Part shown: positions 3,259-59,241 of the stretch, in pieces
Numbering within the stretch: the stretch's first letter is position 1
Layout of the letters: every line of letters starts with the position of its first letter
DNA from: Minisyncoccota bacterium
GTDB taxonomy: Bacteria; Patescibacteriota; Minisyncoccia; Phycocordibacterales; SBAW01
Length of the DNA stretch: 64,000 nucleotides
Reading direction: 5' to 3'
NCBI GenBank assembly: GCA_035546615.1
Contig: DASZWM010000002.1
Location: 15,460 to 79,459, forward strand
The notes under the pieces: generated by a model
The model's database searches: none
What the model was told of the DNA's origin: nothing
The model's input: the letters and a program-made list of their open reading frames with translations, nothing else
Program-made: the position numbers and the translations under genes

Positions 3259-4422
3259 CTAACGCAAGGTGCGCAGGAAGCGGGGGACTTCGTTGACGCT
3301 GATTATGTGCTGGGAGCTGTTGCGGGTGGAACGGACGATGACCGTGCCGTCAAGCGCCTCGCGCTGGCCCATGATAAGGAGGTAGGGGACGCCGAGCTCT
3401 GCCGCGGCGGAGAGCTGCATCGAGAGCCGGCTGGCATCGAAGGACTGCAGCACCGGCACGTGCGCCGCGCGCAGCATATCCACGACCGCCAGGCCCTGCA
3501 GCTTGGCGCGCAGGCCGAGCTGGGCGAAATAGATCTTCGGCTTTATAGCAGGCGCGACGGTGGCGAAGTTCTGCTTGGAAACGCCTTTCTTGCGGAAGAA
3601 GATGCTCGCGCCCACGCCGGTTGAGTCCTTGCGGTGGCTTTCGCGCTTGAGGTACTCGTCATAGCGGCCGCCGAGCGCGCCCACGATAGTGGCGTCGTCT
3701 TCTTTGAAATCGAGCGCGAAGGCGATATGGGGGCCGCGCTCGTCGCCGCCCAAGAGGTCGTCGAGCTGATAGGGGATGCCAAGCTGCTCCAGATGCTCGA
3801 GCACGGAGCGGAAATGCACGCGGCTCTTTTCAGAAAGGAAGTGCATCGGCCGCGGACCGCCCTCAAGCAATGCCGTTATCTCCGGCGAGTGCAGGCGATA
3901 GACGGAGAACGGGTCGTCCATCACGCCTTTGCGCGCGGCTTCCTCGAACTGGTCGAGGTTGCGGCGCAGGTAGCTTCCGAGCTCGCGCCCGAAGCGCTGC
4001 TGGCTGTCGCGGTCGCCGAGTGCGTTGACGCGCACGCGCTCAACCTCGCTGCCCCATTCGGTGGCCACCATCGTTATGGTCTTGAGCAGGACTATTTCGC
4101 CGACGCTCTCCGGCGTGCCGATGACCTGGAGGCCGAACTCGCCCACGTCGCGCGGCGACATCCCGCCGGGCACGTGGCTGGGGGCGGGCGTAGCATAAAA
4201 TCCCAGTATCGGGTCCTGCGGCCGCGCGGCCGCGCGCATGGCGCCGAGCAATGCCGCGCTTTGGAACGAGTACACGCCCTGTGTACGGCGGTTGCCGACC
4301 TTCGCCTCGATGTGGCGCATATGGTCGCGCTCTATCTCGCGCATGGGGCGGAAGCCGTAGAACGACGCCACTTCCGACGCGTGCTTCAGGAACGATATCG
4401 GCGATGTTCGGGAGGTACTCAT
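3259..4422 (-). CDS. histidyl-tRNA synthetase-like class II aaRS (divergent, short N-terminus)
   Basis: GGRYDEYL resembles HisRS motif 3 and DPFSVYRLHSPE the HisA region. The C-terminal anticodon-binding domain is present (PYLLIMGQREALDGTVIVRS). Motif 1/2 region is weak. Confidence 0.55.
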   Translation of the reverse strand: MSTSRTSPISFLKHASEVASFYGFRPMREIERDHMRHIEAKVGNRRTQGVYSFQSAALLGAMRAAARPQDPILGFYATPAPSHVPGGMSPRDVGEFGLQVIGTPESVGEIVLLKTITMVATEWGSEVERVRVNALGDRDSQQRFGRELGSYLRRNLDQFEEAARKGVMDDPFSVYRLHSPEITALLEGGPRPMHFLSEKSRVHFRSVLEHLEQLGIPYQLDDLLGGDERGPHIAFALDFKEDDATIVGALGGRYDEYLKRESHRKDSTGVGASIFFRKKGVSKQNFATVAPAIKPKIYFAQLGLRAKLQGLAVVDMLRAAHVPVLQSFDASRLSMQLSAAAELGVPYLLIMGQREALDGTVIVRSTRNSSQHIISVNEVPRFLRTLR

Positions 4423-4434
4423 GCGTGGCAGCTG

Positions 4435-5016
4435 CTATTGCGACGAAAGGCTTCCGGGGAAAAGGCCGAGTTCCTGGACGGGGAGAAGCCGCACGAACGC
4501 GCGGCCGACGATATCGGCGCGCGGCAGCACGCCCCAGATGCGCGAATCGGAGCTCTCGGGCCGGTTGTCGCCCATGACGAAATACTCGCCGGCCTTGAGC
4601 GTGACGCTCATGTCGCCGCCGTTGCCCTGATGCGTGACATAGGATTCGTCCGGCGTGAGGATATTGCCGTTGGTCATCACCACAGACACTACTCCGCGCT
4701 GTATGCGCACGGTCTCTCCCGGAAGCCCGATGACGCGCTTGATGAAATACTGGGTCGGGTCCTTCGGATAGCGGAAAATGACGACATCGCCGCGCGCGGG
4801 CTCCTCGAACCGGTAGGAAAGCTCGTCGACGATAAGGTACTGGCCCGTCTCAAAGGTCGGCACCATCGACGCTCCCGAGACGATGAACGGTTTCGCGATG
4901 AAAAGTCGGACCGGAACGACGATGACGATTGCGATGAGTGCGAATTTCAGGAGTTCGATGAAAAAATTTTCACGTTTCTCCTCTTGCATACCGAGTATTG
5001 TACATCCGCCGTGCAT
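4435..5016 (-). CDS. lepB: signal peptidase I
   Basis: Catalytic Ser box SGASMVPT, a K box IKRVIGLPGE, and GDNRPESSDSRIWG. Confidence 0.9.
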   Translation of the reverse strand: MHGGCTILGMQEEKRENFFIELLKFALIAIVIVVPVRLFIAKPFIVSGASMVPTFETGQYLIVDELSYRFEEPARGDVVIFRYPKDPTQYFIKRVIGLPGETVRIQRGVVSVVMTNGNILTPDESYVTHQGNGGDMSVTLKAGEYFVMGDNRPESSDSRIWGVLPRADIVGRAFVRLLPVQELGLFPGSLSSQ

Positions 5017-10265: not shown

Positions 10266-12749
10266 ATGGCTGACGACGAAACAAAGAAAGACCCCAAAGA
10301 CGGCCGCACTGACGGCGGCACCGGCATAGTCGGGCGCAACATCTCCACCGAGATGCGCGAGAGCTTCATCGACTACGCGATGTCGGTCATTACCGACCGC
10401 GCGCTTCCTGATGTGCGCGACGGATTGAAGCCCGTGCACCGCCGCATCCTCTACACCATGCATCGCCTGGGGCTCACGCCTTCGGCGCGCTTCCGCAAGT
10501 CGGCGCTCGTGGTGGGCGACGTGCTCGGCAAATACCATCCGCACGGCGACGCGTCCGTATACGACGCGATGGTAAAAATGGCGCAGGAGTTCTCCATGCG
10601 CTATCCGCTCGTGCTCGGCCAGGGCAACTTTGGTTCCGTGGACGGCGACTCGGCCGCCGCCATGCGCTACACCGAAGCGAAGATGTCCCGCATGGCGGAG
10701 CAGCTCCTCGGCGATATCGAAAAGGAAACTATCGACTGGCGCCCCAACTACGACGGCAGCCTCAAGGAGCCGGTGGTGCTTCCGGCCGCGGTGCCCAACA
10801 TTTTGCTTAACGGCACGCTCGGCATCGCTGTGGGTATGGCCACCTCTATCCCGCCGCACAACCTCACCGAGCTCTCAAACGCGCTCGTGCACCTTATTGA
10901 GAATCCCGAGGCGACGGTAGAGGACCTCATGCAGTTCGTCACCGGCCCCGACTTCCCAACAGGTGCGCTCGTATTTAATAAGAAGGACCTGCTCCACGCG
11001 TACACCACCGGCAAGGGCGGCGTGGTTACCCGCGGCGTTGCCGAAATTGTGGAGGGCAAGAAGGGCGACTATCAGATAGTCATTACCTCCATACCGTACC
11101 GCGTGAACAAGGCCGACATGATAATGCGCGTAGCCGACCTCGTGCACGAGAAGAAGCTCGAGGGCATCCGCGGCCTGCGCGACGAGTCCACCAAGGACAT
11201 CCGCATCGTAGTAGACCTGAAGCAGGGCGCGCATCCGCAGAAGGTGCTCAACTACCTCTACAAGCACACGGCGCTCGAGGACACGTTCCACTTCAACATG
11301 GTCGTGCTCGTGGACGGCGTGCCCCAGACCCTGTCGCTGAAGGGGATACTGCAGGAATTCATCAAGCACCGCCAGGACGTCGTGCGCCGCCGCACGCAGT
11401 ACGACCTTACGCAGGCGCAGGCCCGCGAGCATATATTGCTCGGCCTCAAGAAGGCGCTCGACCATATCGACGAGATAATCAAGCTCATCCGCGCATCCCG
11501 GGACGTGGCCGACGCACACGCAAACCTGATGAAGAAGTTCAAGTTCTCCGAACTGCAGGCGACCGCCATTCTTGAAATGCGCCTCCAGAAGCTCGCCAAC
11601 CTCGAGCGCAAGAAGATAGAGGACGAATTGAAAGAGGTTCAGGCCCTTATCGAAGAGCTCACGAGCCTGCTGAAGAGCGAAAAGAAGATGATGACGGTCA
11701 TCCGCGGCGAAATAGAGGACATCAACAAGAAATACGGCGACGAGCGCAACACCAAGGTGGTAAAGGGCGCGGCAGGCGTCATTAACGTCGAGGACCTCGT
11801 GCCCGACGAGGAGCAAGTGCTCGTGCTCACCCAGGGCGGCTATGTAAAGCGCACCAACCCCGACGAGTTCCGCAAGCAAAAGCGCGGCGGCGTGGGCGTC
11901 ATCGACCTCGATACCAAGGAGGAGGACTTCGTAACGAACTTCCTCACGACCTCGACGCACTCGGACCTGCTCTTTTTCACCAACGCGGGCAAGGCGTACC
12001 AGCTGAAGTTCTACGAGATCCCCGAAGGCAAGCGCTCCACCAAGGGCCGCCCTATTGTGAACTTCCTCTCCGTTACCCCCGAAGAGCGCGTTACCTCGGT
12101 GCTCCCTATGCGCAAGAACCAGAAGGAGGGCGAGAAATTCCTCTACATGATAACCAAGCAGGGCGTCGTGAAGAAATGCGACGCGACTGCCTTCCACGAT
12201 GTGCGCCGCTCCGGCCTCATCGCGCAGAAGCTCCAGAAGAACGACGAGCTCATCGCGGCACTCTTGGTGGAGAAGGGCGATGAAATATTCCTTTCGACCG
12301 CCAAGGGGCAGTCTATCCGCTTCAAGGAGTCCGACGTGCGCCCGATGGGCCGCGCGGCCGGAGGCGTGCGCGGCATGAAGCTCAGCGGCGGCGATACCAT
12401 CGTGGGTGCCGATGTGGTTAAGAAGGGAGTAAAGAACCAGGAAGTGCTCGTCATTTCACGCAACGGCTACGGCAAGACGACCGCGACCGAAGAATATAAG
12501 AACCAGAACCGCGGCGGCTCCGGCATCAAGACCATGAATATGACCCCCAAGACCGGCCCGCTTATCGCTGCGCGCATCATCACCAAGGAAGATGGCGTGG
12601 GTGAGGACGAGATCGTGGTCATATCTAAAAAAGGCCAGGTCATCCGCACCGAGCTTAAGGAGATCCCCAGCCTTTCCCGCAGCACGCAGGGCGTACGCGT
12701 TATGAAGCTCCGCGAAGGCGATGCGATAGCAAGCTTCGTTTGTCTATAG
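10266..12749 (+). CDS. gyrA: DNA gyrase subunit A
   Basis: [21 protein letters not shown] active-site region, the catalytic Tyr region [10 protein letters not shown], and C-terminal beta-pinwheel repeats. 827 aa. Confidence 0.95.
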
Positions 12750-12752
12750 GAT

Positions 12753-13346
12753 ATGGATACTACCACTCAGGCGTATCTTGAAATTCTGGAGAAAACAAAT
12801 CAGCAATTAAGTCTTTGGTATAACCCATATGGTCTAATGGTGGCAGTATTGACTGGCCTAGTAGCGGCACTTGCAATTGTTTTTGCTTTTATTTTATGGA
12901 GACAGCAGAAAGAATATAAAGATGCTTTTAAAGATTTTCTCGCTGAACGTAAAAAGTTCGCCAATAGTGAGATAGCAAAGGCAATAGTAGAAGCCGGAAA
13001 AGTGCTTGACGATAAAATTATAGAAGCGGACAAACAACTCAAAGATATAAAAGACTCAAGTAGCAAAACAAAAAAAGACATTGAGAAGGAAATTCAAGAA
13101 CTCAAAAAGTCCAGAGAATCTTTGCAGTCAGGTAGTGCGATTTTTCGTAGTGGAGGTGTGAGCGGCCCAATATATGGCACCGCTGCGAGTTCTATTTTGG
13201 GAGTAGCTTCTGGCGCGAATAGTACAACCGTTTGGGATCCAACTTCTAGTGTATTTAGTGCTGTTGGTAAAATATGTGGTTTTTGTGGAACTCAGAATTA
13301 TCCTGGCGCACAATTCTGTTTCTCTTGTGGGAACCCCCTTGGATAA
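12753..13346 (+). CDS. membrane-anchored coiled-coil protein with C-terminal zinc ribbon (AT-rich gene)
   Basis: One TM helix, a K/E-rich coiled coil, and a C-terminal CGFCGTQNYPGAQFCFSCGNPL C4 ribbon. Local GC is much lower than the flanks. Confidence 0.5.
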   Translation: MDTTTQAYLEILEKTNQQLSLWYNPYGLMVAVLTGLVAALAIVFAFILWRQQKEYKDAFKDFLAERKKFANSEIAKAIVEAGKVLDDKIIEADKQLKDIKDSSSKTKKDIEKEIQELKKSRESLQSGSAIFRSGGVSGPIYGTAASSILGVASGANSTTVWDPTSSVFSAVGKICGFCGTQNYPGAQFCFSCGNPLG

Positions 13347-13383
13347 AAAGTTCTTGTCTTCCTAGAAAGAATCTAATCACTAT

Positions 13384-14358
13384 ATGAAAATAAAGATTGA
13401 AGAATTGCGGCAATTAATGGTTAAAATTCTTGCGGGCAAGTATTACTCGCAGGAGGAGGCAGAAAAGATTGCCGAAGTTTTTCTTTATGCTGAATTGTCC
13501 GGTAAAAATACACAAGGAGTTCTTAAACTTCTTGGTTCTGAGCCGGCTCAAAATATACAGCCCAAGTATCTTCCTAAGATTATAAAAGAGACAAAAGTAT
13601 CTGCGCTTGTAGACGGAGGCGGAGCGGCCGGACCTTTGGCAGCTCAATTTGCACTAGATAAGGCGATTTCATTGGCTAAAGAGACTGGAGTAGGAATTGT
13701 GGGTTTAAACAATACTTTTTCTAGCGTAGGAGTTATGGGATTTTATGCTCGCAAGATGGCCCAAGCAAATCTGATAAGTATTGTGAGTGCAAGTTCACCC
13801 AGAGCAATTGTTCCTGCGGGAGGTATTGAGCCAGCTTTTGGCACAAACCCCATAGCATTTGGTTTCCCTACAGAAGAATATCCAATCGTTTTTGATATGG
13901 CGTCTTCGGCTATCACTTGGTATGGGCTTGTTCGTGCAAAAGCCCTTGGTCAAAAGCTACCCGAAAATGTCGCGATTGATAAAGAAGGAAACATAACAAC
14001 TGATCCTGAGGCGGCAATGGCTGGAGCTATTTTACCTTTTGATCGCTCTTACAAAGGTTCTGGGCTGGCTATGGTCGTTGAACTCTTAGCGGGAGCTTTT
14101 ACAGGTGCATCGGTTGTATTTGACGAAGGTGACTGGGGAACTTCCTTTATTGCCTTTAGTCCCGATCTTGTTATTGGCACTGAGCAATTCAAGAAAAAGT
14201 CCTCAGAGCTGGTAAAGAAAGTAAAAGCAGGCAAAACCAAAGCAGGAGAGAGCATACATATCGCCGGTTATGACAGCGAGGCAAAGCTAAAAGAGATCAA
14301 TGATTCAGGAGAGATAGAGATTGAAGATAAAATTCTCGATCAACTAAAGACTTTGTAA
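13384..14358 (+). CDS. Ldh_2 family (malate/L-lactate dehydrogenase type 2) oxidoreductase
   Basis: YKGSGLAMVVELLAGAFTG and IEPAFGTNPIAFGFP are characteristic of the Ldh_2 family. Confidence 0.65.
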   Translation: MKIKIEELRQLMVKILAGKYYSQEEAEKIAEVFLYAELSGKNTQGVLKLLGSEPAQNIQPKYLPKIIKETKVSALVDGGGAAGPLAAQFALDKAISLAKETGVGIVGLNNTFSSVGVMGFYARKMAQANLISIVSASSPRAIVPAGGIEPAFGTNPIAFGFPTEEYPIVFDMASSAITWYGLVRAKALGQKLPENVAIDKEGNITTDPEAAMAGAILPFDRSYKGSGLAMVVELLAGAFTGASVVFDEGDWGTSFIAFSPDLVIGTEQFKKKSSELVKKVKAGKTKAGESIHIAGYDSEAKLKEINDSGEIEIEDKILDQLKTL

Positions 14359-14365
14359 TAAGAAT

Positions 14366-14905
14366 ATGAAATTTGGGAACTTGAAATTTGCGCCTGCCAT
14401 TGAACACCCAGAACTTTTGGCTGCTCCTGTTGCTAGTGCACTTACGAGTTTGTCCATCGCTGATGTTGGTGTCGCAGAAATCGACCCAGCTCTCTCCGAC
14501 ACCGCAGCATTTTGCGAGAAGTACGCCGTTGTGCCTGCCCAGGCTGCTAATTGTGTAGTGCTTAAGTACAAAAAAGGCGAAGAGTCGGCCTTTGTCGCAT
14601 GCGTGATTTTGGCAACCACTCGTGCTGATGTGAACGGCCTGGTGCGCAAGGTACTCGACATCAAAAAGATTTCTTTTGCGCCCATGGAGGAAGCCGTGGC
14701 AGGAAGCTCGATGGAATTTGGAGCAATAACTCCTATCGGTTTACCAGCTAATTGGCCAATTTTAATAGACAAAGCCGTTGTCGATTCTCCTGGGGTTATA
14801 ATCGGGAGCGGAATTCGCAAATCTAAATTAGGTTTACCGGGCAGAGTTCTTGCTTCACTGCCGAACATACAAATACTTGAAGGGCTAGGTCAGGTAAAGA
14901 CATAA
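14366..14905 (+). CDS. YbaK/ProX-type aminoacyl-tRNA deacylase domain protein
   Basis: The fold pattern CVVLKYKKGEESAFVACVILATTRADVNGL...GAITPIGLP resembles Cys-tRNA(Pro) deacylases. Confidence 0.55.
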   Translation: MKFGNLKFAPAIEHPELLAAPVASALTSLSIADVGVAEIDPALSDTAAFCEKYAVVPAQAANCVVLKYKKGEESAFVACVILATTRADVNGLVRKVLDIKKISFAPMEEAVAGSSMEFGAITPIGLPANWPILIDKAVVDSPGVIIGSGIRKSKLGLPGRVLASLPNIQILEGLGQVKT

Positions 14906-14912
14906 TAAATAT

Positions 14913-15167
14913 ATGAGCAAAGGAGATACAGTACCGCCAGTTCCTTCGGACGCTCCTCAGGTAGGAGAGGTCTTTAAGCATTACAAAGGGGACCCATACC
15001 GCGTCGTAGCGCTCGCGCTCCATTCCAACGACGACGAGTGGATGGTGGTGTACGAGCCCATATACGAAAATCCGGCCGCGCCCATGTTTACCCGGCCGGT
15101 TCGGGAGTGGGGAGAGGAAGTAGAGTGGGAAGGCAAAAAAGTGAAGCGCTTTCAAAAAACAGCTTAA
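14913..15167 (+). CDS. DUF1653-like small protein
   Basis: HYKGDPYRVVALALHSNDDEWMVVYEPIY matches the DUF1653 core. Confidence 0.5.
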   Translation: MSKGDTVPPVPSDAPQVGEVFKHYKGDPYRVVALALHSNDDEWMVVYEPIYENPAAPMFTRPVREWGEEVEWEGKKVKRFQKTA

Positions 15168-15199
15168 TTCTTTATTTTAGCTTTTTGCAAAAAACTAAA

Positions 15200-15604
15200 A
15201 TGAAAAAGACCGTCATCTTCGACATGTACGGCGTGCTGGTGCGCCGGAACTTTTTCATAAACGAGGAGGAAGATACGGAGATGGTCGCGCTTGTGCGGGA
15301 GCTTAAAGAAAGGGGAACTCAGCTTCTGCTACTTTCCAATATCTATATATGGAACTCGGCGCACTTCAAAAGGAAGTACCGCTTTTTGGAGCTGTTCGAC
15401 AGGCTCTACTTCTCTTCCGACACTCACTTTTCCAAGCCCGACCCGGCGGCATTCCGAATGGTGCTTGAGGAAAATAACCTAAGCTCCGAAGACTGCGTCT
15501 TTTTTGACGACACAAAGGCCAATGTAGAAGGGGCGAAAGCCCTCGGCATAGAAGCGTATGTGTTTGAAGGCCCGGATGCGACAAGAAAAGCATTGGGTAT
15601 GTAG
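15200..15604 (+). CDS. HAD-superfamily hydrolase
   Basis: Motif I IFDMYGVL (DxD-type nucleophile), the LLLSN and K regions, and the motif IV FFDD. Confidence 0.7.
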   Translation: MKKTVIFDMYGVLVRRNFFINEEEDTEMVALVRELKERGTQLLLLSNIYIWNSAHFKRKYRFLELFDRLYFSSDTHFSKPDPAAFRMVLEENNLSSEDCVFFDDTKANVEGAKALGIEAYVFEGPDATRKALGM

Positions 15605-53260: not shown

Positions 53261-54319
53261 ATGGCAAAGGGCTCCAAGGAAGAAATCGCTGCGCCTATGG
53301 CGCTGTATCGCAAATACCGGCCTTCCGGCTTTGCGGAAGTGCGCGGGCAGGAAGAGGTCGTTTCGGTCCTTGAGGCCGCTATAAAGAAGAACGAAATCGC
53401 GCACGCCTACCTTTTCTCCGGCGGGCGCGGCACCGGCAAGACCTCGATGGCGCGCATTTTGGCCCGCGCGGTCGGGACCAGCGAGCAGGATATCTACGAG
53501 ATGGACGCCGCATCCAACCGCGGTATCGACGAGATACGCGAGCTTCGCGAAGGTGTCTCGACGATGCCGTTCGATTCCAAATACAAGTTCTATATCATCG
53601 ACGAGGCTCACGCGCTCACCAAAGACGCCTGGGGAGCGTTTCTCAAGACCCTTGAGGAGCCGCCGGCGCACGCGATATTCGTGCTTGCGACGACCGAGCT
53701 CGACCGCGTGCCCGAAACCATCCAGTCGCGCTGCCAGGTGTTCCGTTTCAAGAAGCCCAGCCACGAAACGCTTAAGAAGCTCGTCCTCGATGTAGCCAAG
53801 AAAGAAGGCGTCGCGCTTGCGCCCGCAGGTGCGGAGCTTGTCGCTTTGGTAGGGGAAGGCTCGTTCCGCGACACACTCGGCACGCTCCAGAAGGCGCTTA
53901 CGATTTCGGAAGACAAGAAACTGACGGAAGAGGAGATAGCGAAGGTAATTGGTGCGCCATCGGCCGGGCTGGTAAATAATTTTATCTCGGCGCTTGCCCA
54001 GAAAAATATAGACGACGCGCTTGCCGCCTTCTCGGCCGCGGTAAAAAACGGCTCGGAGCCGCAGATATTCATCTTGCTCGCCGTTGCGAAAGTGCGCGGG
54101 ATATTGCTCCTGCGCTTTGCCCCCAAAATGCGCGGAGAGCTTGCCGAGCAGTTCGGCGAGGACGATATGAAGCTGCTTGAGTCGCTCGCAAAGGGCGAGG
54201 GCGCAAGCATTAACTCCCAAACCCTGGCAGAATTCCTGACCGCGCTCATTGAAACTCCGCGCGCTCCGCTTCCGACTATTCCGCTGGAGCTTGCTCTGTA
54301 CCGCCTCTTCCAACAATAG
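53261..54319 (+). CDS. dnaX: DNA polymerase III subunit gamma/tau (short)
   Basis: YRKYRP, FAEVRGQE, HAYLFSGGRGTGKTSMARILA, the DEAH box IIDEAH, and the SRC motif SRCQVF. Confidence 0.88.
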   Translation: MAKGSKEEIAAPMALYRKYRPSGFAEVRGQEEVVSVLEAAIKKNEIAHAYLFSGGRGTGKTSMARILARAVGTSEQDIYEMDAASNRGIDEIRELREGVSTMPFDSKYKFYIIDEAHALTKDAWGAFLKTLEEPPAHAIFVLATTELDRVPETIQSRCQVFRFKKPSHETLKKLVLDVAKKEGVALAPAGAELVALVGEGSFRDTLGTLQKALTISEDKKLTEEEIAKVIGAPSAGLVNNFISALAQKNIDDALAAFSAAVKNGSEPQIFILLAVAKVRGILLLRFAPKMRGELAEQFGEDDMKLLESLAKGEGASINSQTLAEFLTALIETPRAPLPTIPLELALYRLFQQ

Positions 54320-54321
54320 AT

Positions 54322-54987
54322 ATGGAATTTATACAGTCATCGAATCCGAGCGAGGGCGCCCAGGCTATGGCGCAGAAGATAGTTGAATCTTTGCGGAAGG
54401 GAAAAGTGCTGTGGCTGATATGCGGCGGCTCGAACGTGCCGCTTTCGGCGGAGGCCATGGATGCCGTACGCGCCGCAGTTTCTGCGGATGAATTGCGGAA
54501 CCTAACGGTCGGCATGACGGATGAGCGGTACGGGCCGCTTGGGCACGCCGACTCCAACTGGAAGCAGCTTGAGGATGTTGGGTTCAATATAGAAGGAGTC
54601 ACGGCTATTCCGGTACTTACGGGAAAGCCGCTTGAAGAGACTGTTTCGGAATATGCTCAGAAGCTCGAAGATGCGCTGCAAGAAGAACCGCTTGTTATCG
54701 CGCAATTCGGCATCGGCGCGGACGGGCATATCGCGGGCATGCTTCCGCACAGCCCCGCGGTCTCAAGCACGGACACTATATACGCATACGAAGCCGCGCC
54801 ATTCACGCGCATTACAATAACCCAGCCGGTATTCAAGAAAATATCCGTCGCGTATGCGATAGTATTCGGCGAGTCCAAAAAAGCCGCCATCGACCGCCTC
54901 AAGAACGAGGACCTTCCGGTTGAGGAAATGCCCTGCCAGTTGCTTAAGCAAATCCCCGAAGCGTATTTTTATACCGACCAGCTTTAA
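54322..54987 (+). CDS. pgl: 6-phosphogluconolactonase
   Basis: LICGGSN, MTDERYGP, and GIGADGHIAGMLP motifs of the Pgl/NagB family. Confidence 0.75.
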   Translation: MEFIQSSNPSEGAQAMAQKIVESLRKGKVLWLICGGSNVPLSAEAMDAVRAAVSADELRNLTVGMTDERYGPLGHADSNWKQLEDVGFNIEGVTAIPVLTGKPLEETVSEYAQKLEDALQEEPLVIAQFGIGADGHIAGMLPHSPAVSSTDTIYAYEAAPFTRITITQPVFKKISVAYAIVFGESKKAAIDRLKNEDLPVEEMPCQLLKQIPEAYFYTDQL

Positions 54988-55024
54988 GAAAAACATCCTT
55001 ACAAACTTGAGAATGTAAGGATGT
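54974..55024. terminator. bidirectional terminator hairpin containing one arm of the arsR-flanking inverted repeat
   Basis: AAAAACATCCTTACAaacttgagaaTGTAAGGATGTTTTT. Confidence 0.6.
54994..55016. repeat. 23-bp inverted repeat, arm A (flanks arsR)
   Basis: CATCCTTACAAACTTGAGAATGT is the exact reverse complement of 55338-55360. Confidence 0.85.
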
Positions 55025-55026
55025 TT

Positions 55027-55332
55027 TTAGAGATTCTGGAAGGATTTTAGGAAGCGGACGAATATCTTACCGTAGGGCGAAAGCCGGTGCTCCACGAACT
55101 TGCCGCGATACTTTTTTGCGATAAGGCCGGCCACATAGAGCCGCCTGGTGTGCTCGCCGATGGTCTTCTCGTTCGCATTAAGGGTCGCCGCAATAGTATC
55201 GAGCGTAACGCCCTCGTGCCGGGCGATAAGAAGCAGTATCTCGATGCGGTAATGATTTGCCATGCCCTTGAGATGGCGTTCCATCTGCTTTGCCGTCTTC
55301 GTATTTTTCATGCGGGAGAGTATACATGACAC
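55027..55332 (-). CDS. ArsR/SmtB-family winged-helix transcriptional regulator
   Basis: HTH NHYRIEILLLIARHEGVTLDTIAATL. Confidence 0.6.
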   Translation of the reverse strand: MSCILSRMKNTKTAKQMERHLKGMANHYRIEILLLIARHEGVTLDTIAATLNANEKTIGEHTRRLYVAGLIAKKYRGKFVEHRLSPYGKIFVRFLKSFQNL

Positions 55333-55337
55333 CCCAA

Positions 55338-55360
55338 CATTCTCAAGTTTGTAAGGATGT
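55338..55360. repeat. 23-bp inverted repeat, arm B (flanks arsR; putative operator)
   Basis: ACATTCTCAAGTTTGTAAGGATG, located 6 nt upstream of the arsR start codon. Confidence 0.85.
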
Positions 55361-55431
55361 GTGGAAAGGGAAGAGGCGGGGCTGGAAGCGTTTTGTGAAG
55401 GAGCCTTAAATTTGCTATCCTCAGATTGTAT

Positions 55432-55502
55432 TGCCCGATCGTCTAATGGTAGGACAGAGGCCTTTGAAGCCTTTAATTGGGGTTCGAATCCCTGTCGGGC
55501 AG
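55432..55502 (+). tRNA. tRNA-Gln (anticodon TTG)
   Basis: 71 nt: acceptor TGCCCGA/TCGGGCA, anticodon loop CTTTGAA, T-arm TGGGG-TTCGAAT-CCCTG. Confidence 0.8.
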
Positions 55503-55533
55503 CAAATGTAGCGAAGCGTAATTTGCGCCCGAA

Positions 55534-55656
55534 GGAAGCAATGGGATTGCTTCCGGCAGGGATTCGAAAGCCGGAGCGGGACCCGCATCAGCAGATGCGG
55601 GAGCGAGGCAGGGTCGTGCGGCTAAAGTTGCGACGGCAACTTTAGAACGCCTGACC
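55534..55656 (+). repeat. tRNA-associated structured repeat, long form (copy L3, downstream of tRNA-Gln)
   Basis: H1 GGAAGCAAT-GGG-ATTGCTTCC, GGCAGGGATTCGAAAGCCGGAGCGGG, a variable hairpin CCCGCATCagcaGATGCGGG, AGCGAGGCAGGGTCGTG, the hairpin AAAGTTGC-GACG-GCAACTTT, and AGAACGCCTGACC. This is followed by CGAATCCCT, a copy of the tRNA-Gln T-arm segment. Confidence 0.75.
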
Positions 55657-55726
55657 GAATCCCTAAGAAGTTTCTAGTTTTCTCTGTCTCTAGGCAGAAT
55701 CACTTTTTGATGGTAAATCTGTCCTG

Positions 55727-57400
55727 ATGCCGTATTCGACTGATATGTCAGTGTATTTAGATTTGGGCGGCGCTTTAGCTGCTTTTGGCCTTTTATTTAC
55801 TGTTTACCAACTTCGGCGACCAAGGTGGGAGGTAATTTTGCGAATTAGAAATAATTGGCAAAGTGATATTTTCTGGATATTAGGTTTTATAGGTTTGTTT
55901 TATGCCCTAGTTGGCGTGCTTGTATCTGAACTCCCAATTAATTCTTTCAACTTTCCGTTTAATACCCCATTACTTTACGAGGTGGCAGCGTACCTATCGT
56001 TTGTAGCTTCACCTCTGTCATTAATATATTTTGCGACCAATGACAAAAAGTTATTTAACGCAAAAACTGCAGAAACTTTCTACGAAGTAATCTTGCAAGA
56101 AATTTCTAAATCTAGTGATGTAAACCTAGATGCGGCATTGGAAATAGTCTTGAGAAACTTTAATGAAATTTGTGATGCAACTCTTCAAAATACAGATAAA
56201 GATTTGCGCTCATACGCAAGGTCAATTTTAGACGTTGTACTAAGTGACGAGTCTGTAGTAAAAGTGCTCACTACCAAGAGGCTTGATGCTTTGCAATATA
56301 TCTTTTATTTAATAAAGGAAAAGAATATCACTCGTGCTCATTCGGGGATAGGTATACCGAGAATTGTAAATAATCTTTTCTTTGACGAAAATTCCTTCCT
56401 CTATAAACAACTCGATAGAAAAGGGTTGGCACTTTCATCAAATATATACACGAGCATTTTTGAATCTCCAGTTATACTCACCAACTTTGATCTGTTTGGG
56501 TACCCGACTATCGGTTATGGAATGAGTAGAGATACTGGCAATGCTGGTATAAGAGTATTTATCAAAGCCTTATCTCTAAGCATTGAAACTTACTTTAAAA
56601 CAGGGAGCGTGCCTCCGAGGCACATTAATAATGGGTTGTCTTACTTAAGCAATATATTTGGAGGGTTGTGTGCAAAAATTGCCATCAAAGAAAATAAAGG
56701 TGTTGATACTAAATCTAGTTTAGAAGATGAGTGGTGGGGCTTACATCAAATAGCCTCCTTTTTAGGACATGATTATATTTTTCTTGCCTATGAAGAAAAA
56801 CTAAATCAGCAAGTTCTGGAAAACGAAAAAACTGCCCATGAGGCTCGATTTGGCTCAAATGCAACTATAAATGAGGGTATTGCAGCTGTTATCTATAAAG
56901 CTTTTGAGCAGCTTTCACAAATTAAAAAAACCACAGACATATATCATACAGTTCTGGAGCTCTTGCATGGAATGATGAATGAGCCTACCTACAAGGAAGG
57001 TTATAGACCGCCTTTTGAAAAGAGACTCTGGCAACAAATCGGTGCAAATGTTGCTAAACGTTATTATCCTGCCGTCGTTAGAACGTATTTAACCTTTGTT
57101 GGGTTCTGTCTTGGCGCAGATGCAAACCAACGACAAGGTTGGATTGGCGAACAAGCGGAACGTATGAGACGACTTTTGTATATTGACCTTAAGCCTTTAT
57201 TTGATAAGAATGAAAAAATGATAAATAAGGAATTTATGAAAGACGTTTTGCTCCCAGATTCCATGTCCTATAAAGATGGTAAATTTACTTATACCTCTGG
57301 ATTCGGAGAAGGTACAACCACTGAAGTAGCACCACCCCCTGAGGGTGCGACATCAGGTTTGGAAGGAATAGATTTAGAGAGTATGCCTCACTTCGTCTAG
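55727..57400 (+). CDS. large hypothetical membrane protein (3-4 N-terminal TM helices, about 440-aa soluble domain), AT-rich island
   Basis: Local GC is far below the genome average; no recognisable catalytic motif. Confidence 0.6.
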   Translation: MPYSTDMSVYLDLGGALAAFGLLFTVYQLRRPRWEVILRIRNNWQSDIFWILGFIGLFYALVGVLVSELPINSFNFPFNTPLLYEVAAYLSFVASPLSLIYFATNDKKLFNAKTAETFYEVILQEISKSSDVNLDAALEIVLRNFNEICDATLQNTDKDLRSYARSILDVVLSDESVVKVLTTKRLDALQYIFYLIKEKNITRAHSGIGIPRIVNNLFFDENSFLYKQLDRKGLALSSNIYTSIFESPVILTNFDLFGYPTIGYGMSRDTGNAGIRVFIKALSLSIETYFKTGSVPPRHINNGLSYLSNIFGGLCAKIAIKENKGVDTKSSLEDEWWGLHQIASFLGHDYIFLAYEEKLNQQVLENEKTAHEARFGSNATINEGIAAVIYKAFEQLSQIKKTTDIYHTVLELLHGMMNEPTYKEGYRPPFEKRLWQQIGANVAKRYYPAVVRTYLTFVGFCLGADANQRQGWIGEQAERMRRLLYIDLKPLFDKNEKMINKEFMKDVLLPDSMSYKDGKFTYTSGFGEGTTTEVAPPPEGATSGLEGIDLESMPHFV

Positions 57401-57402
57401 AT

Positions 57403-57960
57403 ATGAATCCAAACATTTGGTTTTACACTTTTAGTACAGCAGCCCAAGTAATGGCGGCTTTGGCCGGTTTATTTGCAGTATTTGTTGTATATAAGATTCA
57501 AGATTTTAGTCAGCTTATAAAAGACGCCCGCTCTAGTCTGTCCCGGTTGATTCCATACAATTCAGCGAATACGGGCGGAGATACAATCTCTAAGCAGGAA
57601 GTATTAGATATGACTGATAGAGAATTGGTTACTACGCTTGCCGAGTTGTTAGTACTTGAGACATCTCAGAATGGAGCGTTCTTTAGCGGACATTCAGAAA
57701 CTATAGATGGCACAACGATAGCTGTAAACTCGAATACCTACGACTATTTCGCAGCCCTTGTTGATAAAAAGGAAAGAATACTAAAACGTCTGATTTTTGT
57801 CTTGGGTTTAAGTTTAGGAACTATTTGTGTTTGTCTAGTATCATTGGTGCTAATTGACGTGTTATCAAAGTTTGAGTGGTTTATTTGGATGTGTTTGGCT
57901 TTATTTATATACACCCTTTGGACAATCGGAATGGATATTTACAAGATAACCCTAGAGTAA
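57403..57960 (+). CDS. hypothetical 3-TM membrane protein, AT-rich island
   Basis: Starts 3 nt after the previous stop; TM1 at the N-terminus and TM2-3 at the C-terminus flank a soluble loop. Confidence 0.55.
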   Translation: MNPNIWFYTFSTAAQVMAALAGLFAVFVVYKIQDFSQLIKDARSSLSRLIPYNSANTGGDTISKQEVLDMTDRELVTTLAELLVLETSQNGAFFSGHSETIDGTTIAVNSNTYDYFAALVDKKERILKRLIFVLGLSLGTICVCLVSLVLIDVLSKFEWFIWMCLALFIYTLWTIGMDIYKITLE

Positions 57961-57969
57961 TCTTTCTCT

Positions 57970-58293
57970 ATGAAAGGAATAATTATCGAAAATAGTCTCA
58001 AAGACAAAAGTATTATCACCGAAGCTGAAATTATTCGAACTTGGGAAGATGGAAGTTGGAAGTTGCGGGAGGTAAAAGTTTCAACAGAATGGGCTGAAAA
58101 ATTTGGAGGATACTTAAATGATGGACCCTGGTATGTTCACTTTTGGGAATCCGACAGCGACGATGTACTAGTAGTATTTAAAGACAAAAGCTTCTGGATC
58201 AAACATTCGGACAAGAATACTTGGCAAGATGCTATTGCTCATGGAAAGTCGTTACATATACCCGTGGAGCAATTAGACTTTCCTATTGATTGA
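57970..58293 (+). CDS. small soluble hypothetical protein, AT-rich island
   Basis: 107 aa; Trp-rich (WEDGSWKLREV, GPWYVHFWESD). Confidence 0.5.
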   Translation: MKGIIIENSLKDKSIITEAEIIRTWEDGSWKLREVKVSTEWAEKFGGYLNDGPWYVHFWESDSDDVLVVFKDKSFWIKHSDKNTWQDAIAHGKSLHIPVEQLDFPID

Positions 58294-58331
58294 GATTTCG
58301 ATTTCTCCCTTTTATATTATATAATCAAGAT

Positions 58332-58715
58332 ATGAAGTATTTGCTAATCACGGCTTTATTTTTGGTTGTCTTTGTGTTTGCTACTCCAGCAAAGGCCGCA
58401 CCATTAACCCAATCCCAAGTAAATGCAATAATTACTATTATGCAGTCTTTCGGTGTAGATAGTGCTACGATTTTAAATATCAAAACAACACTCTCTAATT
58501 CGACTTCCGCTAAGGTAGAATCCGTCGTCAAAACTACTTTTAAAGGAGTTCCTACCTACGCACAAGTGAAAAGAGAGTTAGCAAAATCACGCAATAAGGA
58601 GGTGACTTATATGGAGAATGGATGTGTATACTCAATAAACCATTTAGTGAGTGAACATATTTTCAAAACACGCGATATGAGTATTCGCGATCTTGCATCT
58701 GGAGCAAGTTGTTAG
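58332..58715 (+). CDS. small secreted hypothetical protein, AT-rich island
   Basis: Signal peptide MKYLLITALFLVVFVFATPAKA. Confidence 0.5.
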   Translation: MKYLLITALFLVVFVFATPAKAAPLTQSQVNAIITIMQSFGVDSATILNIKTTLSNSTSAKVESVVKTTFKGVPTYAQVKRELAKSRNKEVTYMENGCVYSINHLVSEHIFKTRDMSIRDLASGASC

Positions 58716-58758
58716 TGCTCCTTGGTGTATAAAGTTTAAAAATATAGTTAATCTTCTC

Positions 58759-59241
58759 TTACCCCCGTCGCGCCGCATCAATAGCGGCAACGTCGAGCTT
58801 TTTCATCGTCATCATCGCGTCAAACGCGCGTTTTGCCTCATCGCCGCCCTTGGCAAGTGCTTCGGTCAGCGTGCGCGGCGTTATTTGCCACGATACTCCC
58901 CAGCGGTCCTTGCACCAGCCGCACTCGCTCTCCTGGCCGCCGTTTCCGACGATGGCATTCCAGTAGCGGTCCGTCTCTTCCTGATCGTCCGTCGCTATCT
59001 GGAAGGAAAACGCCTCGCTTTGCTTGAAATACGAGCCGCCGTTAATGCCCATGCAAGGAATCCCGCAGACCGTGAACTCTACCGAGAGCACGTCGCCTTT
59101 CTTGCCCGACGGGAAATCGGCAGGCGCATGGAAGACGCCCGTTACCTTGCTGTCGGGGAACGTAGCGGCATAGAAATTCGCCGCCCCTTCCGCATCCTTA
59201 TCAAACCAGAGGCAAATAGTGTTTTTTGGTATCATATACAT
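58759..59241 (-). CDS. VOC-family protein (PhnB / 3-demethylubiquinone-9 3-methyltransferase-like domain)
   Basis: CLWFDKDAEGAANFYAATFPDSKV and WGVSWQI match the PhnB-like glyoxalase fold. Confidence 0.6.
   Translation of the reverse strand: MYMIPKNTICLWFDKDAEGAANFYAATFPDSKVTGVFHAPADFPSGKKGDVLSVEFTVCGIPCMGINGGSYFKQSEAFSFQIATDDQEETDRYWNAIVGNGGQESECGWCKDRWGVSWQITPRTLTEALAKGGDEAKRAFDAMMTMKKLDVAAIDAARRG

Follow-up and report, generated by a model that had tools for sequence, protein, structure and literature searches.

A structured element fused to copies of the 3' end of the preceding tRNA-Gln gene represents a probably new element family of CPR/Patescibacteria

The stretch of 64,000 nucleotides analyzed here (the window; contig DASZWM010000002.1 of the Minisyncoccota bacterium assembly GCA_035546615.1, positions 15,460 to 79,459 of the forward strand) carries on its plus strand a transfer RNA (tRNA) gene for glutamine, tRNA-Gln(UUG), at window positions 55432-55502/3 (ARAGORN; Rfam tRNA model, 60.7 bits), without an encoded CCA. 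An element of 161 nt, L3 (55504-55664, plus strand), lies directly behind it, and at the next base begins an AT-rich block of 3,091 bp (55665-58755; GC content 0.374) with four plus-strand open reading frames (ORFs; 55727-57400, 57403-57960, 57970-58293, and 58290-58715). A sequence-only reading of this locus had described L3 as a long-form repeat copy with three hairpins that ends in a duplicate of a tRNA-Gln segment, immediately before an island of roughly 3.1 kb, and all of this is borne out by our analysis. The same reading proposed that the element may serve as the attachment site of the island, and this part is only partly supported. According to our results, L3 is a resident copy of a family of structured elements that spans the Candidate Phyla Radiation (CPR)/Patescibacteria and is restricted to CPR in the sample at hand. 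The family is real, and it is probably new.

The sequence that L3 copies, referred to here as X, is the 3' part of tRNA-Gln from C56 (55485) to the end of the gene. L3 opens with a trailer or spacer in which sequence and fold indicate a small hairpin (55504-55533); within it, GCCCGA (55527-55532) is complementary to the acceptor 3' strand of the tRNA, TCGGGC (55495-55500). Hairpin hp1 follows (55534-55554), with 9 bp and a GGG loop at 55543-55545; its equivalents, with a GGG or a CTGC loop, are present in other copies of the family. Next comes X' (55553-55568), which is antisense to the T loop, the 3' strand of the T stem, and the start of the acceptor of tRNA-Gln, and was recovered by a repeat search as a 16-nt inverted repeat with 94% complementarity (55483-55498 and 55553-55568). 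The same register of X' is found in 41 long-form copies. Positions 55558-55565 of X' form the 5' strand of a closing helix, P0, and the 3' strand of this helix is provided by X'' (55656-55664), a shortened sense copy of the tRNA from C56 with the sequence CGAATCCCT. X'' is identical to tRNA positions 55485-55493, and base 55665 already departs from the tRNA. An inverted third copy of CGAATCCCT lies at 55558-55566, and the 9-mer occurs four times in the window (0.66 expected), a number reached in none of 100 shuffles.

Between the two tRNA copies lies the conserved core, a three-way junction at 55565-55660 that is recognized by our covariance model R1 with 88.7 bits (E = 3.6e-18). It comprises P1 (55570-72 paired with 55607-09) with the ensuing GGA/GA internal loop, hp2 (55582-55601), and P3 with hp3 (55612-55656), which has a GACG loop at 55632-55635; all these features of L3 are on the plus strand. 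The minimum-free-energy fold of L3 (-85.2 kcal/mol, z = -4.06) reproduces the junction and the three hairpins with their GGG, variable, and GACG loops. Neither hp2 nor hp3 has a U run behind it, and both were rejected as intrinsic terminators. A hairpin with a T run that resembles a terminator by consensus match only (55683-55708, plus strand) lies already inside the AT-rich DNA.

Model R1 describes the core of about 95 nt, of which 16 copies could be aligned almost without gaps. The metagenome loci are those listed by a stricter pattern scan, and the family counts that include them are lower bounds: R1 gave at least 130 matches across at least 98 family-holding sources, of which at least 86 are metagenome loci. 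A scan of genome contigs with the loose pattern GCGAGNCNGGGTCGYG..GACG yielded 120 loci, 109 of them chance matches in GC-rich genomes; R1 had 12 matches in 11 genome loci, ten of which are labeled as Saccharibacteria, Zambryskiibacteriota, Adler-, Taylor-, Nomura- or Kaiserbacteria, and the eleventh as an unclassified "uncultured bacterium." No R1 match was obtained in the approximately 230 control loci (about 109 non-CPR and 120 viral, all chance matches to the loose pattern), and phage and plasmid collections contained no match to the element. Searches against Rfam 15, at the gathering score and with E-values up to 10, returned the tRNA, transfer-messenger RNA (tmRNA), and rRNA models alone, and literature searches brought up no description of such an element. 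The group I intron reported in tRNA genes of Patescibacteria (PMC13011429) occupies position 35/36 and is unrelated to the element.

The coupling to tRNA genes is a general property of the family. A tRNA gene on the same strand lies within 450 nt upstream of 108 of the 140 pattern-defined cores, and 18 amino-acid types are represented; five further cores (L116, L118, L275, L288, and L334) follow the tmRNA gene, ssrA, the tRNA-like 3' end of which is copied. Several cores without a tRNA sit at contig edges where a partial tRNA 3' end is visible. Seven others (L004, L047, L079, L256, L260, L296, and L348) have no recognizable tRNA, tmRNA, or Rfam RNA upstream; several of their upstream sequences share AAAAAGGTTCG-like motifs, and these cores may mark unrecognized RNA genes or intron-containing tRNA genes. 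The unit as a whole is discrete, 130-190 bp long and devoid of protein genes, is located in the 3' flank of tRNA or tmRNA genes, and always has the orientation of the tRNA. The cores mostly run directly into ordinary genes, with no island, and approximately half of the tRNAs in element-bearing contigs lack the unit.

The fold is supported by extensive covariation. RNAalifold, applied to 16 copies, gave 29 pairs, 19 of them with compensatory changes. Across 130 sequences, 94.2% of the cells in paired columns were paired, compared to 70.2% in shuffles and 30-48% with slid partners; changes on both sides were seen at 27 of the 29 pairs (867 cells), and the observed values were not reached in any of 500 shuffles. 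At one pair, 120 of 128 sequences have G.U, and at another position GC (74) alternates with GU (46), so the fold exists on the tRNA-sense strand only, either as RNA or as single-stranded DNA. The core is composed of P1 (GNC:GNC, covarying), the GGA/GA internal loop with tandem G.A, P2 with hp2, a two-base linker, and P3 (GGUCG:UGACC), which extends into the long AT-rich hp3 with its GACG cap. The innermost pair of P0 covaries as well (U-A in 68 sequences vs C-G in 38), and the core holds about 35 invariant, mostly unpaired nucleotides. Columns 113, 123, and 180 of alignment A2 (A55610, U55617, and C55651 in L3) take two states, with 76-81 sequences showing G/C/G and 36-37 showing A/U/C, which could reflect either a base triple or simply two subfamilies.

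The flanks differ with the neighboring tRNA. Directly 5' of the core, X' is the reverse complement of the 3' region of that tRNA, and directly 3' of the core, after ..UGACC, X'' is a sense copy of the same region. The distinction between long and short forms made in the sequence-only reading is real: the element is joined to the tRNA sequence in two alternative registers, to which the two forms correspond. In long forms such as L3, which have an AAA junction, X' is antisense to C56 through the T-stem 3' strand, and X'' starts from C56. In short forms, X' is antisense to C72-N73-C74 and the trailer and makes a hairpin of at least 20 bp with the tRNA end, and X'' is CAC or CGC followed by trailer-like sequence. 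The two copies are not preserved equally: among 41 long forms, X' is complementary to its own tRNA at 9/9 positions in 31, X'' pairs 9/9 with X' in only 16, and the fit of X' to the tRNA is better than that of X'' in 23, equal in 16, and worse in 2. In intact long forms, the identity of X'' with the tRNA extends from C56 precisely through the discriminator N73 and C74 and then ceases, with 19/19 identical positions in L088, L102, L279, L289, L291, L297, L325, L356, and L358; a few copies run on into the trailer (27 nt in L251), and duplications between 4 and 27 nt long were recorded. The acceptor part of X'' is either intact or lost, in a bimodal manner, and the first 9-10 nt, the P0 arm, are nearly always kept. 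Many long forms have a complement of the acceptor 3' strand together with the hp1 hairpin 5' of X', and in several copies this complement lies 5' of hp1. Overall, these long forms look like a tRNA with one hairpin in place of the D and anticodon arms and the core in place of the T loop. In L3, P0 has 8-9 bp and the acceptor copy is lost; the full copy is present in L314, L291, L102, L088, and others.

Within the window, R1 detects five cores behind its eight tRNA genes (Lys, Cys, Tyr, Trp, and Gln), all in tRNA-sense orientation. Apart from L3, these are two short forms on the plus strand, at 24192-24282 behind tRNA-Lys(CUU) (24076-24149; 86.8 bits) and at 34373-34463 behind tRNA-Trp (34260-34331; 87.7 bits), and two long forms on the minus strand, at 24313-24408 behind tRNA-Cys (24469-24541, minus; 84.5 bits) and at 31969-32064 behind tRNA-Tyr (32152-32235, minus; 87.9 bits). 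X'' of the tRNA-Tyr copy, TCCTCCCCGGCGCAC, matches the tRNA 3' end at 15 of 15 positions. The convergent Lys (plus) and Cys (minus) copies abut tail to tail, 30 nt apart, within 24192-24408; no gene lies downstream of either of them, and therefore the element is not the 5' leader of anything. Behind tRNA-Leu(CAA) (37099-37185), the same frame is found with another core and no R1 match (36945-37098, minus strand): it has hp1, an antisense segment GGGAGAATCGAAAG, and an X''-like 3' copy CGATTCCCCCCGCCA, and its core, of the type ACTTTTCGTTATCGAGTC...GATCGAAAAGT plus GGCTACGTGGTAGCC, also occurs behind tRNA-Glu of L280. At least three further core types were observed in the same antisense/sense tRNA frame (L328, L345, L280, L264, L306, L304, and L336). 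The other core types share a GGAGC..GCGAG motif, a CTGTAAG-loop hairpin forms the end of several of them, and Rfam contains none.

Comparison of related loci shows that the unit is gained or lost between close relatives. A core lies behind tRNA-Ile(UAU) in L265, and L118, with an identical tRNA, has a trailer hairpin and X' and no core; a core is present behind tRNA-Lys(UUU) in L294 and L268, not in L341; and L289 has a core behind tRNA-Ser(UGA), where in L341 the next gene starts 17 nt after that tRNA. Presence or absence of the unit thus differs between relatives that are 80-90% identical, and the boundaries in the comparisons of empty and filled sites (L265/L118, L294/L341, L289/L341) are not cleanly resolvable. 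Units occur in tandem in L303, L299, L248, L305, and L328. The mean identity of copies is 0.525 within contigs vs 0.557-0.574 between contigs, and the Gln and Cys copies of the window differ by compensatory stem changes; given this lack of an excess of within-contig similarity and these compensatory differences, the element is not a recently bursting repeat. As further observations on such loci, tRNA-Lys(UUU) has opposite orientations between the same flanking genes in L268 (724-996) and L341 (6069-6209), with the element in L268 only, and units of tRNA plus element seem to be relocated in L277 vs L350.

The island behind L3 differs sharply in composition from its surroundings: flank GC is 0.555 and 0.559, and the drop to 0.374 takes place within about 20 nt of 55665. 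Pfam and PADLOC gave no match for any of its four ORFs, and there is no recombinase gene among them. The 557-aa protein of the island is 100% identical to a protein of a Paceibacterota metagenome-assembled genome, and homologues with 50-65% identity are widespread. The three homologue contexts that were examined are all defense or mobile islands, with type I restriction-modification genes and Fic or GmrSD and HinfI-type genes as neighbors, and in two of the three the homologue adjoins a large serine recombinase. In one of these two (L367, 4280-4480), the island with a 599-aa homologue and the recombinase begins right behind tRNA-Arg(GCG). In the same locus, an antisense segment, CCCCGATAGGAATCGAA, was noted about 60 nt downstream of this tRNA, with no core.

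The orthologous tRNA-Gln loci, the comparison of which the sequence-only reading had envisaged, proved to be variable: two are without the island, and the third, nearest one has different DNA there. In L122 (6PGL 68% identical), tRNA-Gln is followed after 68 nt by a VOC-family gene, with neither element nor island; L121 (6PGL 75% identical) has a different structured spacer behind tRNA-Gln, with neither core nor island. In the nearest homologue, L314, the core is 86% identical to that of L3, hp1 and X' are alike, and X'' is complete (CGAGTCCCTGTCGGGCAGC, 19/19 identical to the tRNA-Gln of L314). Where X'' of L3 breaks off after 9 nt, L314 runs on with GTCGGGCAGC, and the AT-rich DNA of the window starts exactly where the copied acceptor strand would go on. 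L314 has another AT-rich insert of 1.24 kb (168-1413; alpha/beta hydrolase and PspC-domain protein) between tRNA-Gln and the element, with a decayed remnant of the tRNA 3' end, GGTTCTAGCTCAAGTCGGCCAGC, at its distal junction. This insert, in the homologous locus closest to L3, represents integration of the classical kind at a tRNA 3' end. Since it occupies the genuine tRNA 3' end, it points, together with the island of the window, to the 3' end of tRNA-Gln as a recurrent insertion site in this lineage.

Taken literally, the proposal of the sequence-only reading would make L3 the attL remnant of the integration of this 3.1-kb island, which we consider very improbable. It is true that the first base of the island directly follows the 9-nt tRNA repeat, and the junction interrupts a copy of the tRNA-Gln 3' end resembling a tRNA-type attB site; the island is absent from relatives, its base composition is foreign, and its 557-aa protein family is found elsewhere in defense or mobile islands beside serine recombinases, once directly behind a tRNA. 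Against this, the element is not specific to the island: the family occurs at over 100 tRNA and tmRNA genes that lack an island, a distribution that contradicts the proposal, and L314 has the element and a complete tRNA-end copy with no such island after it. The island lacks a recombinase gene, and there is no matching repeat at its far end: CGAATCCCTGTCGGGCAG, searched for with up to 3 mismatches, is found in the tRNA only, and a repeat search of 55380-58900 revealed no repeat flanking the island. X'' is also cut to 9-11 nt in L270, L280, L281, and L361, and its shortening in L3 alone is therefore no proof of integration. On balance, L3 is a plausible landing pad rather than an att scar left by the island itself. 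No island-free strain of this species was found; the Logan contig L370, an independent assembly 100% identical to window positions 53704-55467, ends inside the tRNA-Gln gene and is uninformative in this respect. Either the repeated tRNA end or the element may have led the assembly of L370 to break at this point. A second low-GC block of the window (12700-15600; 0.41-0.46), located after gyrA, codes for a zinc-ribbon protein, an Ldh_2-family dehydrogenase, a protein with a YbaK-like tRNA-editing domain, and a HAD hydrolase; it has neither tRNA nor element at its borders, which also speaks against an att role of the element.

For the element itself we tentatively favor an RNA function, to which we would give somewhat less than an even chance. 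The unit would be transcribed from the tRNA promoter by transcription that runs on beyond the tRNA, and the fold would be that of the resulting RNA, with X' and X'' closing the three-way junction as helix P0. In long forms, P0, the acceptor-strand complement, and the copied acceptor 3' strand with the discriminator would imitate the stack of acceptor and T stem. From this imitation we propose that RNase P, RNase Z, and the CCA-adding enzyme would excise the unit as a tRNA-like small RNA, in which the 95-nt core would be placed where the T loop is expected. The RNA function is preferred on account of the unpaired bases that do not vary, the tandem G.A, and a wobble pair that is likewise invariant, and because diverged, old resident copies keep their structure and the P0 arm is kept where the downstream DNA has been replaced. 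At the window locus, the element would be older than the island and independent of it, and X'' would have doubled the tRNA-type target available for integration. The 3.1-kb block of defense-island type would have been joined at the end of the 9-nt P0 arm, replacing the copied acceptor strand. The most economical account of its siting would be either that X'' served as a duplicate tRNA-type target or that the position just beyond the P0 arm is free to vary. Insertion into X'' would predict an island-free allele of the form ...GACCGAATCCCTGTCGGGCAGC directly before the VOC gene region.

Several observations weigh against an excised tRNA mimic. In 29 of 37 short forms, a terminator-like hairpin with a U run separates the tRNA from the core, and none follows the core (in long forms such a site precedes the core in 11 of 43 and follows it in 6 of 43); read-through may therefore be weak. 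The poorer preservation of X'' than of X', with 9/9 pairing in 16 of 41, would be odd if P0 were a selected helix. L3 itself cannot form the full mimic, because its acceptor copy is missing. Finally, direct repeats of tRNA ends, two registers, the use of tmRNA, tandem units, and polymorphism are the textbook signature of DNA integration at tRNA genes.

This signature leads to the main alternative, which we regard as unlikely, though well worth considering: a gene-less integrating DNA cassette resembling attC or the CTX-phi attP. A circle or single strand composed of X, spacer, X', and core would imitate the tRNA target duplex through X:X', and a recombinase supplied in trans would recognize the folded core. 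Recombination at the T loop or the 3' end would leave the order tRNA(X)-spacer-X'-core-X'', in which X'' is the displaced original end that later decays. The direct repeat of X and X'' from a fixed point to the exact tRNA end fits this well, as does the fact that X' tracks X, not the decaying X''. The two registers, at T-loop C56 and at C72, fit known integrase sublocations; according to a preprint, tRNA-targeting integrases use T-loop and asymmetric 3'-end sublocations (bioRxiv 10.1101/2020.11.02.365908, citing Williams 2002). tmRNA genes are used as well, complementary arms would rebuild the target duplex in a folded single strand, units stand in tandem and vary in presence between relatives, and the position of the short-form terminator ahead of the core is also in favor. 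A strand-specific fold with G.T wobble is also seen in folded single-stranded DNA sites. On the other side, no recombinase gene was found in or beside any unit examined, phage and plasmid collections gave no match, and a single core would have to suit no fewer than 18 tRNA targets as well as tmRNA. Near-identical copies within a contig are lacking, and diverged copies are still 94% paired, suggesting selection on resident copies and not transposition. With its tandem G.A, its invariant wobble, and some 35 nucleotides that never vary and are mostly unpaired, the core bears a closer resemblance to a tertiary motif of RNA, and L118, with its trailer hairpin and X' and no core, shows that the short-form "empty site" already holds X'.

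A host device acting in cis on tRNA 3'-end formation or tRNA supply is, in our opinion, improbable. In such a device X' would pair with the 3' part or trailer of its own tRNA in the precursor, forming a long RNase III-type processing or terminator stem, or the unit would act in a riboswitch-like manner, with the core and X'' deciding whether X' attacks the tRNA. The perfect complementarity of X' to the real tRNA, the hairpins of at least 20 bp made by tRNA end, trailer, and X' in short forms, the attenuator-type three-part layout with a three-way junction closed by a P1-like helix, and the preservation of the core across the phylum, with several core classes in one frame, are in line with this. 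The unit is dispensable, however, as identical or orthologous tRNAs lack it in close relatives, as do about half of the tRNAs in element-bearing contigs; furthermore, the tRNA is transcribed and folded before X' exists, and the exact copying of the acceptor strand in X'' up to the discriminator is left unexplained. Taking the main possibilities together, we put forward, as a proposal that leans toward the doubtful, a phylum-wide and undescribed class coupled to tRNA and tmRNA genes, which would be either (a) an RNA switch or mimic that affects how its own tRNA matures and in which an aptamer-like core controls an antisense arm directed against the T arm, or (b) a cassette without protein genes, specific to tRNA genes and guided by structure and homology, i.e., attC-like outside integrons.

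Other candidates were rejected. For a group I intron, a known small ribozyme, or a retron, the unit is too small or has the wrong topology, and neither an Rfam signal nor a reverse transcriptase was found. X' is not a retroviral-type primer-binding site, as its complementarity takes in the genomic trailer and not the CCA, and long forms start at C56. IS110 bridge RNA and TnpB guide RNA do not fit, since the variable segments lie outside the fold and pair with each other, with no adjacent transposase gene. The interpretation of hp1 as a relic anticodon arm was dismissed because GGG or CTGC tetraloop-type loops are common to trailer hairpins, and a miniature inverted-repeat transposable element (MITE) is incompatible with arms that differ with each tRNA, a duplication of 4-27 nt, and a mean within-contig identity of 0.525.

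Upstream of tRNA-Gln, the motif TTTGCTATYCTCA recurs in the window (55411-55423) and in L121 (~3321-3333), L122 (~4651-4663), and L314 (~37-50), about 8 nt from the tRNA in the window and L122 and roughly 40-55 nt from it in L121 and L314. In its sequence it looks like an extended -10 promoter element (TGnTATCCT), and similar TG-n-TA..T motifs are also present ahead of tRNAs in L299.

CPR/Patescibacteria account for much of the diversity of bacteria, and their genomes are very small; yet about half of the tRNA genes in the examined contigs carry the unit. If it functions as RNA, it would constitute a new, abundant class of tRNA-linked RNA, possibly mimicking tRNAs or regulating their maturation, in hosts about whose RNA biology hardly anything has been learned. 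As a DNA cassette, it would exemplify a process in which a folded strand guides site-specific integration into tRNA genes and the element itself brings no integrase. In either case, the duplicated tRNA ends represent additional integration targets and a source of spurious tRNA fragments in annotation, and they may cause assembly breaks (compare L370, ending inside tRNA-Gln).

Among known systems, the attL and attR sites of elements integrated into tRNA and tmRNA genes, including gene-poor CIME-type (cis-mobilizable element) remnants, are similar in that a tRNA 3' segment is duplicated downstream, starting at the T loop or 3' end and stopping at the gene end, and also in the use of tmRNA, in tandem units, and in presence or absence between relatives. 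Here, by contrast, the interval is only 100-190 bp with no integrase or other gene, one core is conserved across at least 18 tRNA types, and there is an internal antisense copy of the tRNA end. The attC sites of integrons and the folded single-stranded attP of CTX-phi, an integrative mobile element exploiting Xer (IMEX), have complementary arms, a conserved structure rather than a conserved stem sequence, and a strand-specific fold of about 60-140 nt, and can occur as gene-less units in arrays. In our element, the arms are taken from the neighboring tRNA instead of representing a fixed core site (RYYYAAC/GTTRRRY or dif), the central part holds about 35 invariant nucleotides, and no intI/attI or dif context was seen. 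MITEs and repetitive extragenic palindromic (REP)-type repeats are likewise short, non-coding, multi-copy, and hairpin-rich, but the present family shows no family-wide terminal inverted repeats, fixed target duplication, or near-identical copies, and is distinguished by phylum-wide conservation and by strict association with tRNA genes in one orientation.

Among RNAs, tRNA-like structures (the tmRNA domain, viral tRNA-like structures, plant mitochondrial t-elements, and the MALAT1-associated small cytoplasmic RNA, mascRNA) offer a parallel in that a stack of acceptor and T stem with discriminator would be imitated at the end of an RNA other than a tRNA, and RNase P, RNase Z, or the CCA-adding enzyme would be recruited in this way. 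Unlike these, the putative mimic described here copies the adjacent cognate tRNA base for base, has a 95-nt three-way junction for the T loop and one hairpin for the D and anticodon arms, and in the short forms keeps C72-N73-C74 alone. RNAs derived from tRNA trailers, such as the 3' external transcribed spacer (3'ETS) of leuZ in Escherichia coli, have the same placement in the 3' external spacer of a tRNA transcript; they are single loci that act as sponges of small RNAs and are not known to have a conserved fold or tRNA copies. With three-way-junction riboswitch aptamers the element shares a junction with invariant unpaired bases, a P1-type closing helix, and one strand with an alternative partner, but that partner would here be the upstream tRNA, and no regulated gene lies downstream.

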